Shown: one piece after another, positions 4,149 to 12,227 of the stretch
How positions within the stretch are numbered: position 1 is the stretch's first letter
Layout of the letters: every line of letters starts with the position of its first letter
Sequence record: OL960577.1
Length of the DNA: 64,000 bases
Source of the DNA: Escherichia phage vB_EcoM_SA35RD
Reading direction: 5' to 3' (one strand)
Made by a program: the position numbers and the translations under genes
Notes under the pieces: generated by a model
Seen by the model: the letters and a program-made list of their open reading frames with translations, nothing else
Told to the model about the DNA's origin: nothing
Database searches by the model: none

Positions 4149-4349
4149 TTATTCGTAGAAGTCGGTAACTGTCCATGCGGAATTGCGATTAGACATTATT
4201 TTATTATACTCATCTTTAAAAGCAGATTTGAGCATTTGTTCAGTAACAATATGTTCTTCACCTGAAAACGTATTGGTCAAAACATATTTTTTAATTTCAG
4301 GGACAACGAGAAGATGTTGGCCGGTTGAATACTCCATGTTGTTCTCCAT
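4149..4349 (-). CDS. hypothetical protein (66 aa)
   Basis: Track ORF, tightly packed between rpbA-like ORF and gp46. Confidence 0.4.
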   Translation of the reverse strand: MENNMEYSTGQHLLVVPEIKKYVLTNTFSGEEHIVTEQMLKSAFKDEYNKIMSNRNSAWTVTDFYE

Positions 4350-4391
4350 TTAATTTGATGTGGTCATTATAACCACATCGTGTTAAAGCGT

Positions 4392-6080
4392 TTATGAAAC
4401 AGTCATTACCGTAAATCGTCCAACTTTGCTCATTTGAAGATGTTGTCCATAAGCTTGTGGGTCATGGTCTCTGTGACTAATTATAAACACGTTTGCATCG
4501 GTTAGAGAGTTAAGAATTGTTGAAATAGCTTTAATACCTTCAGAATCAGTCGCGGAATCCATGACTTCGTCCATAATTAATGTATTGATTCTAACACCAG
4601 AGACCTTTTCAGCAATATCTCGCCATGTAAACAACAACGCGATATCGATACGCGCTTTTTCGCCTTGACTAAATGAAGCATAACTGAACTCTTCACGGCC
4701 ACGTGATTTTATAGATTCATTGAATTCTTCGTCAATAGAAAACACGTAATCGGCTTCCATGATTTTAAGATAATGGTTAATCTGCTTATTGAACAAAGGC
4801 ACGTATTTTTTAATGATAGCACCTTTAATACCAGAATCTTTTAACATATCTGTGATAATACCACGATGGTATTTTTCAAGAACGATATCTGATTTTGTTT
4901 TAATGATTTTATCAAGTTCTTTTTGAAGCAAAGCTATCTCATCGGCATGGTCGATAAATTCCGCTGAGGCTTGTTCTATTGCAGCTTTAACTTTCTTAGC
5001 TTTATCAATAGTGGCAATCATTGCTTGTTTCTTGGTACGAATATCAGATGCAAGGTCCTGTTTAGTCTTAACATTAGCTCTATATTCGTCCACTAGGACA
5101 CTCAGATTATCTCTGTGGCAGGTAAGTTGCTCGAATGAGTGATTACATTCATGAAGCTTATCGGTAATCTTAGAGACAATAGGGTCACCCTGGTGCAACT
5201 GTGATGCGCAAGTAGGACATGTACCGCCATCATGATACATCTTAATAACTTTGTTATATGAGTCAATTTTAGATTTAATCAAGAATGCTTCTTGTCCGAT
5301 CTTGTTGAATGCCTCAGTAGGGTCTTCGTCAAGAACGATATTAAGTAGACGCTCGTTAGCTTCTTCAATTTCTGCTTTTAATGAACGAGCTTCTTTGGCT
5401 AGGTCGTCATACATATTCTGTAGACGCGCTACATTATCGCCAGATAATTTCTTTTGACGTTCGATATTCTCGTTATAAATCTTAATTTGTTGGATAATAC
5501 CATCTTTCTTGGCATCGAGAACTTGTCCCTGGGAATTAAGTTCTCGAACTTGAGACTTATTGATTTTATCCATTTCGGCGAGTGTGCCGACTTCTAAAAG
5601 GTCTTCGACAAGTTTTCTACGAGCAGGGGTGCTAAGAGCCATGAAAGGGGTATACCCTGCCGTCCCAAGCACAACGATTTGTTTAAAAGACGCGTATGAC
5701 ATTCCGATGCTACGTTCAAATTCTTCTTGGAAGTCACGACTGCTGGCAGATTCATCAAGACGAACACCGTCAACGGAGATTTCGAAAATATTGGGCTTTT
5801 GGCCTCGTTTAATGAAGTATTTTTTACCATCGAATTCCATCCAAAGCTCAACTAAGAGCTCTTTCTTGTTCGTGCTATTAATGATTTGTCCTTTCTTAAC
5901 ATCACGAAATGGTTTACCGAAAAGTCCGAAAGTAATGGCTTCTAACATCGTAGATTTACCACCGCCATTTTTACCAGTGATTAATGTCTTTTGGACTTTA
6001 TCTAATTGGATATCAATAGGATTCCCACCTACCGACATGATGTTTTGATAACGAACACGATTTAATTTAAATGATTTCAT
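4392..6080 (-). CDS. 46: recombination endonuclease subunit gp46 (SbcC/Rad50-like ATPase)
   Basis: 562 aa; Walker A GKNGGGKST, ABC signature region FSQGEKAR, Walker B LIMDEV, long coiled-coil middle. Confidence 0.9.
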   Translation of the reverse strand: MKSFKLNRVRYQNIMSVGGNPIDIQLDKVQKTLITGKNGGGKSTMLEAITFGLFGKPFRDVKKGQIINSTNKKELLVELWMEFDGKKYFIKRGQKPNIFEISVDGVRLDESASSRDFQEEFERSIGMSYASFKQIVVLGTAGYTPFMALSTPARRKLVEDLLEVGTLAEMDKINKSQVRELNSQGQVLDAKKDGIIQQIKIYNENIERQKKLSGDNVARLQNMYDDLAKEARSLKAEIEEANERLLNIVLDEDPTEAFNKIGQEAFLIKSKIDSYNKVIKMYHDGGTCPTCASQLHQGDPIVSKITDKLHECNHSFEQLTCHRDNLSVLVDEYRANVKTKQDLASDIRTKKQAMIATIDKAKKVKAAIEQASAEFIDHADEIALLQKELDKIIKTKSDIVLEKYHRGIITDMLKDSGIKGAIIKKYVPLFNKQINHYLKIMEADYVFSIDEEFNESIKSRGREEFSYASFSQGEKARIDIALLFTWRDIAEKVSGVRINTLIMDEVMDSATDSEGIKAISTILNSLTDANVFIISHRDHDPQAYGQHLQMSKVGRFTVMTVS

Positions 6081-11275: not shown

Positions 11276-11616
11276 GGCTTAATTTCCTTCGCAATTGAAC
11301 AGAAGATACTACGGTCACAAAGCATTTCACCAATTTCTGGATATTTGATTGAACGGTACCAAACATCCAGGCTTGAAATTCTGGTTATCCGTACTGCATT
11401 ACCATTGACAGAATAATACCGGTCAACCTTAATTTCTTTATCTTCAATTGTCATTTTATTTTCCTCTATAGTAGATGGTTTAATCTTAACACATTTATTG
11501 AGGATGTAAACTGTTTTATGAAAATATTTTTTGATTTGAGAGGGGCACAAGGAGATAGTGAAGTGAAGATTCCAATGGATTATATTAGAAATGAGATAAA
11601 GAAGACCAGGCGGCAC
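11272..11616 (-). CDS. hypothetical protein (114 aa)
   Basis: Track ORF. Confidence 0.45.
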   Translation of the reverse strand: MPPGLLYLISNIIHWNLHFTISLCPSQIKKYFHKTVYILNKCVKIKPSTIEENKMTIEDKEIKVDRYYSVNGNAVRITRISSLDVWYRSIKYPEIGEMLCDRSIFCSIAKEIKP

Positions 11617-11620
11617 CTGG

Positions 11621-11944
11621 TCAATCTTCTATGATATCAGAGTCATATCCTAATGAAATCAAGGACTTTTTAAACTCTGCAATATTCTTTTGTTTCTTAT
11701 CATTTAAAAATATGACAGGATAACGAATATTAAGTGAAGTGAATCCTGCACGTTTAGCAAGAGATACAATTAAAGGACGGTCATATTCAATCTTACCATT
11801 ATTAGTGAGGACTTTATAAAATGTATAAGGAGCATTGAGCTCCTTTAAAAGTTTTGTAACAGTATAACATCCTGGACAACGTCCAACTTCTTCAGGGATG
11901 CCATAGATTTCAATCTTGTTCTTTAAGTTCGAGTTTTGTTCCAC
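11621..11944 (-). CDS. glutaredoxin/NrdH-like redoxin (CPGC active site)
   Basis: KIEIYGIPEEVGRCPGCYTVTKLL; no in-frame ATG near the domain start, GTG at 11944 with AAGGAA RBS proposed; track ORF 11621..12073 N-terminus looks out-of-frame. Confidence 0.55.
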   Translation of the reverse strand: MEQNSNLKNKIEIYGIPEEVGRCPGCYTVTKLLKELNAPYTFYKVLTNNGKIEYDRPLIVSLAKRAGFTSLNIRYPVIFLNDKKQKNIAEFKKSLISLGYDSDIIED

Positions 11945-12227
11945 GAGAAATAATTCCTTGGTAAGCCCAATAAGGAGGATTAACAGAATCCTCACCAGAG
12001 TTTTCTTCAGGAAAATAAACCTGGATAACAAATCCAGACTCATCAAAGGTAAAATAAACCGTAGGCAGTTCACCTAACAAATCGGCACGAGCGTTGATTT
12101 CTTCGAGGTCTTGTTCACGCCCAGCCCAAAAACTAGGATTTAGATTACATTCGTAAAAATAATAGTCATTACCGAACATATCAAACCCCTTCCAACTCTC
12201 TACCACATACCGCTCAAAACTAATCAT
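11910..12227 (-). CDS. hypothetical acidic protein (105 aa)
   Basis: Track ORF; composition typical of a real protein; stop overlaps redoxin start region. Confidence 0.5.
   Translation of the reverse strand: MISFERYVVESWKGFDMFGNDYYFYECNLNPSFWAGREQDLEEINARADLLGELPTVYFTFDESGFVIQVYFPEENSGEDSVNPPYWAYQGIISRGTKLELKEQD

Follow-up and report, generated by a model that had tools for sequence, protein, structure and literature searches.

Where does translation of a glutaredoxin gene begin when no ATG stands near the start of its domain and its first codons are overlapped by the end of another gene? The question is raised by a minus-strand locus of Escherichia phage vB_EcoM_SA35RD, examined here in a stretch of 64,000 nucleotides (record OL960577.1; the window). 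The redoxin frame runs from stop to stop between 12073 and 11621 (minus strand) and includes …L-V-E-Q-N-S-N-L-K-N-K-I-E-I-Y-G-I-P-E-E-V-G-R-C-P-G-C…; the domain opens ...NKIEIYGIPEEVGRCPGC, with its lysine at 11917-11915. A sequence-only reading of the locus placed the nearest in-frame ATG about 40 codons upstream, inside a 105-aa ORF, which is accurate: the frame has a single ATG, at 12043-12041, which precedes the GTG at 11944 by 33 codons and the K of KIEIYG by 42. From the GTG to the stop, NrdH contains no methionine.

The window belongs to a T4-like phage of the genus Mosigvirus (RB69 group), as judged from the best matches whose records were opened, namely F31, PhAPEC2, NicPhage, and phiC120. 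The 1.1 kb around the nrdH start matches 655 phage records, the top one being Escherichia phage vB_Eco_F31 with 98.7% identity. On the minus strand the genes are ordered as nrdD (605 aa), nrdG (156 aa), a small ORF, a homologue of 55.8 (71 aa), the 105-aa ORF of the PHROG 2749 family (11910..12227), nrdH (11621..11944; 107 aa from the GTG start, with the TGA stop at 11623-11621), and a terminator. The nrdH gene is the final one of this minus-strand unit, which the terminator closes. The latter is predicted as an intrinsic hairpin, GACCAGG-TGCCG-CCTGGTC with a T-rich tail (11604..11622, minus), that begins inside the nrdH stop codon and that the PhAPEC2 record also marks as a terminator. Between it and the homologue of 55.6 (11454-11272) lie about 150 nt without a gene (11455-11603, minus). 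This gap holds a promoter-like site (11510-11483, minus), TTTACA and TAAGAT separated by 16 nt and with an upstream TG, which probably starts the next transcription unit.

The redoxin gene is nrdH, the second T4-type glutaredoxin, which stands beside the anaerobic ribonucleotide reductase genes nrdD and nrdG. Its product is 86% identical to NrdH of T4 and T2 (gene formerly named 55.7; NP_049686.1) over residues 8-107 (tblastn) and shares with it the CPGC motif and the C-terminus …LGYD.DIIED. The T4 genomic position is also kept, downstream of the nrdD-nrdG-55.8 cluster and upstream of 55.6, in an order common to F31, PhAPEC2, RB69, and T4. The T4 reference record describes the protein as 'NrdH glutaredoxin; related to T4 thioredoxin but has glutaredoxin activity'; a study by Gvakharia et al. 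of 1996 is cited on this activity. The product matches PHROG 22 ('thioredoxin domain') with E 1.2e-15 and, as a single sequence, Pfam PF00462 (Glutaredoxin) with 21.0 bits and E 3.8e-4, below the gathering cut-off of 22.9; judged from its sequence, it is a divergent glutaredoxin that falls just short of one curated cut-off. A PDB search with a profile of nine diverse orthologues retrieved glutaredoxins only, the best being the T4 glutaredoxin 1aba (E 1.1e-6). The CPGC active-site motif (residues 23-26; 11878-11867, minus) is invariant in these nine orthologues and aligns with the CxxC of 1aba and 1aaz. The same profile alignment sets K-I-E-I-Y opposite residues 1-5 of T4 glutaredoxin, and thus only a short leader is expected before strand 1.

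The T4 glutaredoxin of known structure ('T4 thioredoxin', nrdC; 1aba, 1aaz) resembles NrdH in its aligned CxxC and its N-terminal strand 1, over residues 3-81 of 87. It differs in that the similarity is distant only, the motif is CVYC rather than CPGC, and nrdC is another paralogue at another locus. A single-sequence AlphaFold2 model of NrdH was poor (mean pLDDT 47). Downstream of the overlap, variable sites in the nrdH frame number 48, 33, and 81 of 87 at codon positions 1, 2, and 3, respectively, and the strong purifying selection that this pattern reflects led us to reject a pseudogene.

The GTG codon itself (11942..11944, minus) is in frame with the domain and is annotated as the start in relatives. 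The sequence-only reading had taken it for the most plausible start, with an AAGGAA box 9 nt upstream. This layout is exact: 9 nt separate the Shine-Dalgarno element AAGGAA (11959-11954, minus; within the Gln-Gly codons of the upstream ORF) from GTG 11944-11942, and the T4 and RB69 records as well as the orthologues agree with the proposed start. The duplex of AAGGAA with the 3' end of 16S rRNA, at -5.4 kcal/mol, is the best and the only usable one among the ATG, GTG, and TTG candidates of the frame. Pairing as good as this occurs at 8.4% of positions, so that the element before the GTG is modest evidence alone; its spacing, 9-10 nt, is also rather long. At the stop-codon frequency of the window, the naive chance that an alternative frame stays open for 33-43 codons is 0.11-0.055, and the long open frame is thus unremarkable. 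By itself, the window sequence is suggestive of the GTG start, not decisive, and the weight of the argument comes from the comparison of orthologues.

In the T4 reference (NC_000866), nrdH starts from GTG (GTG AAA CAA AAT AAG ATT GAA…), 2 nt past the stop of 55.8 and 5 nt past AAGGAA, and in RB69 (NC_004928) it is annotated from the homologous GTG, with an identical 35-nt overlap with RB69ORF082c. The GTG is likewise the annotated nrdH start in T2, PST, RZ, F31, and phiC120. The whole 105-codon stop-to-stop frame of T4 and T2 contains no other ATG, GTG, or TTG codon. The upstream ORF is carried by PST-type Tequatrovirus, Mosigvirus, Gaprivervirus, Dhakavirus, Kanagawavirus, and contig L010, and all of them have the GTG in frame with the redoxin domain. 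Counted by lineage, 11 of the 12 that bear this ORF show the GTG in frame, as do T4 and T2, which have no upstream ORF. The distance from the GTG to the Ile codon varies among the upstream-ORF genera (30, 21, or 15 nt), and AAGGA(A/G) or AAGGTGG is found at the equivalent site in other genera. The upstream ORF overlaps the GTG and so partly confounds its conservation. The codon of that ORF which supplies the 'GT' is CGT (Arg), TGT (Cys), or AGT (Ser); the residue drifts while the 'GT' is constant, which fits selection on the start codon itself.

More distant orthologues (Jiaodavirus KLB8, L021-L026, L028, L033, and L034) have an ATG 1-2 codons before I/V-E-I-Y, either overlapping the upstream stop or directly beside it (ATGA or TAATG). 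The T4/RB69/JS98-type group has AAG (Lys) in place of this ATG, with the start 4-9 codons further upstream at the GTG. The ATG of the distant orthologues points to its loss being derived in the T4/RB69/JS98-type group. The leaders between the GTG and strand 1 read MEQNSNLKNK (the window), MEHNK, MGQNL, MGQNSTK, MDQKLTK, MENQSLK, and MKQNK; the last one, that of T4, is 5 residues shorter than the leader of the window.

As a separate observation, leader length and sequence differ even within one cluster at 90% identity, where P0003, P0007, and P0011 carry MEQNSNLKNK, MEHNK, and MGQNL. This variation (11915-11941 of the window, minus) suggests possible recombination breakpoints at the nrdH boundary.

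Three other ways of making the protein were weighed against initiation at the GTG, and all of them together account for only a small part of the probability. The best surviving, though very improbable, is a start or restart at ATT 11914-11912, which shares its final T with the upstream stop (ATTGA), by coupling of termination and reinitiation. The overlap that it requires is real in the window: as the sequence-only reading noted, the upstream stop covers the first codons of the domain, since the upstream ORF ends …K-E-Q-D-TGA and this TGA (11912-11910) falls on the Ile-Glu codons of KIEIY. The ATGA and TAATG arrangements before the I/V-E-I-Y strand in distant orthologues would also fit such coupling. 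The ATT nevertheless has no Shine-Dalgarno element (-0.9 kcal/mol), and AUU is a very poor initiator against which IF3 discriminates, which counts against its use. It encodes the conserved Ile of strand 1, so that its conservation is uninformative. In PST-type phages, Gaprivervirus, and Dhakavirus the upstream stop is located earlier, away from the ATT, and T4 and T2 have no upstream ORF ending there, yet retain the GTG with a strong Shine-Dalgarno element.

Less probable still is initiation at ATG 12043 (12041..12043, minus), yielding a 140-aa NrdH with a hydrophobic, Leu-rich N-terminal extension. The redoxin frame is open to 12073 in this lineage, so that a longer product is physically possible, and ATG is favoured as a start codon. 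The databases contain three entries of 140 aa, and the 140-aa form is used in the records of PhAPEC2, NicPhage, ST2, and one other. Against this, the ATG is not preceded by a Shine-Dalgarno element (-2.4 kcal/mol, 13-nt spacing), and the overlap with the upstream ORF would grow to 134 nt. The extension MSLDLLSRFIFLKKTLVRILLILLIGLTKELFL is rich in Leu and Ile and has no Pfam family match; the sequence-only reading had remarked that such a Leu-rich stretch looks out of frame, and we likewise judge it spurious. An in-frame stop precedes the GTG by 2 codons in RZ, L019, L020, and L010, by 3 in T4 and T2, and by 10 in Bp7, with no start in between, which makes the long form impossible in RZ, L019, L020, L010, and Bp7. 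Upstream of the GTG, variable sites counted in the frame of the upstream ORF (ten lineages) amount to 45, 36, and 63 of 70 at positions 1, 2, and 3. The third position, the most variable one, would fall on the second codon position of the redoxin frame, and the substitutions upstream of the GTG follow the frame of the upstream ORF only. Between L011 and L012, synonymous changes in its V-N-P-P-Y-W-A-Y segment rewrite the putative extension from LILLIGLT to LTRHTGLI. The orthologue comparison which that reading had proposed as a check revealed no conserved ATG at the 12043 site outside the near-identical Mosigvirus/PST-type group, and the GTG start came through it unrefuted.

A +1 ribosomal frameshift in the 35-nt overlap that would fuse the upstream ORF to nrdH is the least probable of the three, with hardly any chance of being correct. 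The redoxin frame is indeed +1 relative to the upstream ORF, and in Pectobacterium phage PM2 the two form one single frame (199 aa). However, the overlap has no known shift site (no slippery codon before the stop, no Shine-Dalgarno element 3 nt upstream), its longest A-run is only 4, and T4 and T2 express nrdH without the upstream partner. The PM2 fusion comes from a single genome, in which an additional A in an A7 run would give the usual layout. RNA folding of 11995-11895 (minus) predicted no structure beyond that of shuffled sequences (z +0.54), which weighs against a shift and gives no indication of structure-dependent coupling or of hairpin unmasking. A -1 frameshift was rejected, as the third frame stops at once.

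Translation of NrdH from GTG 11944, giving the 107-aa protein, is thus highly probable. The case is built on the layout of the locus, its conservation, the frame-specific substitutions, and orthologues in which longer forms are excluded, from which we infer where ribosomes would start in vB_EcoM_SA35RD. Searches of the accessible literature found no ribosome-profiling or N-terminal data on NrdH of T4 or RB69, nor direct protein or ribosome-profiling evidence for vB_EcoM_SA35RD. In the proposed scheme, AAGGAA would guide ordinary initiation at the GTG, and the protein would consist of a short polar leader (fMet-EQNSNLKN), the first beta-strand KIEIYG, and then the CPGC redox motif. The dual-coding overlap of 35 nt (11910..11944, minus) pairs codons 1-12 of nrdH with the last 12 codons of the upstream ORF, its stop included; in other lineages this overlap measures 20-35 nt. 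The upstream ORF (…Y-Q-G-I-I-S-R-G…) contains both the Shine-Dalgarno element and the GTG within its last 17 codons, so that the two genes are tightly packed. Ribosomes ending the upstream ORF would cross both signals and terminate 32 nt further downstream, and reinitiation by back-scanning from the upstream stop would be possible in principle. The upstream ORF and nrdH are probably linked in translation, as this arrangement would imply.

The sequence-only reading went too far in describing the arrangement as non-canonical initiation. Bacteria and phages use GTG as their standard second start codon. The 35-nt overlap is ordinary as well, since overlaps of 16-35 nt occur several times within a few kilobases of T4 (a-gt.3/a-gt.4, 32 nt; a-gt.5/55, 17 nt; a-gt.2/a-gt.3, 16 nt) and RB69 (a-gt.3/a-gt.4, 26 nt; 075c/55.3, 16 nt). 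In phiC120, which is 97.6% identical here, the glutaredoxin gp188 is annotated from the same GTG (L039, 557..880) with a 35-nt overlap with gp189, and this gene, as ORF 188, is one of four GTG-started ORFs in that phage (PMC8022965). The exact 107-aa NrdH is already present in NCBI and UniRef as 'glutaredoxin' (e.g. JS09 AIA80072.1), on 249 contigs. The GTG-started nrdH is therefore correct yet already known, the T4 and RB69 references and the phiC120 annotation stating the same.

The biological weight of the start itself is very little, as it is a routine alternative start codon in a known phage gene. Its practical value is one of annotation hygiene: GenBank records of near-identical phages hold at least three incompatible models of nrdH, namely 107 aa from the GTG, 140 aa from the spurious ATG, and the truncated form of Bp7, and the orthologues say which to keep. 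In Bp7 (NC_019500; L007, 737-1003) the gene is annotated from an internal ATG (M-R-C-P-G-C), and strand 1 is lost. In Q7622 (L032, 465-806) it is annotated from an ATG 6 codons before the conserved GTG.

RB69 NrdH (NP_861771.1), which is like that of the window in genus, GTG start, and 35-nt overlap with the upstream ORF, differs at the other end, the RB69 reference being cut to 90 aa by an indel close to the 3' end (NC_004928; L030, 4090-4362). There, …AAACAAAGATATTGC… stands against …AAACAAAAGAATATTGC… of the window, which shifts the frame; most Mosigvirus records, like the window, have the full 107 aa. T4 differs from the window upstream of the gene, where it has no PHROG-2749 ORF.

The upstream ORF is a homologue of RB69ORF082c and of PST ORF070. 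It matches PHROG 2749, a family of unknown function, over residues 1-100 (E 1.2e-49), and nothing significant was found for it in Pfam or PDB profile searches; its single-sequence AlphaFold2 model was poor (pLDDT 53). The records of RB69 (4328-4597) and F31 (1822-2091) begin this ORF at an internal ATG and give it 89 aa; those of PhAPEC2 and phiC120 give it 105 aa. The better model is the 105-aa form, whose start at 12227 lies 2 nt past the stop of 55.8, since five genera share its 16 N-terminal residues (M-x-x-F-E-x-Y-V…W) and the match to PHROG 2749 begins at residue 1.

Within Tequatrovirus the PHROG-2749 gene is an indel polymorphism, being absent from T4 and T2 and present in PST-type phages, as well as in all sampled Mosigvirus. 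The junctions are alike: in T4 and T2 the stop of 55.8 is followed by TT and the nrdH GTG (TAG-TT-GTG), and in carriers of the PHROG-2749 gene by TT and the ATG of that gene (TAA-TT-ATG).

In Pectobacterium phage PM2 (NC_028940.1, 207-806) the 199-aa frame that unites the PHROG-2749 ORF with nrdH is annotated as 'glutaredoxin'. Its A7 run directly follows the conserved GTG at the junction (near 483-503), and an extra A restores the two-gene overlap, so that the single frame reflects either a true fusion of the two genes or a sequencing error in the homopolymer. PM2 is the only genome of this kind in the collection searched for relatives.

Wherever the PHROG-2749 ORF was found (six genera), it lies immediately upstream of nrdH, and the Shine-Dalgarno element and GTG of nrdH are inside its conserved C-terminal Y-Q-G-(I/V)-I-S-x-G codons. 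That the PHROG-2749 protein is a dedicated partner of NrdH, and hence of the anaerobic ribonucleotide reductase system, seems unlikely. Were it so, the two proteins would be made in a coupled ratio, because the start signals of one are located within the codons of the other, and the 199-aa frame of PM2 would be a possible Rosetta-stone fusion. The start signals embedded in the PHROG-2749 ORF and the PM2 fusion may thus serve as small leads to the function of an uncharacterised family of phage proteins.
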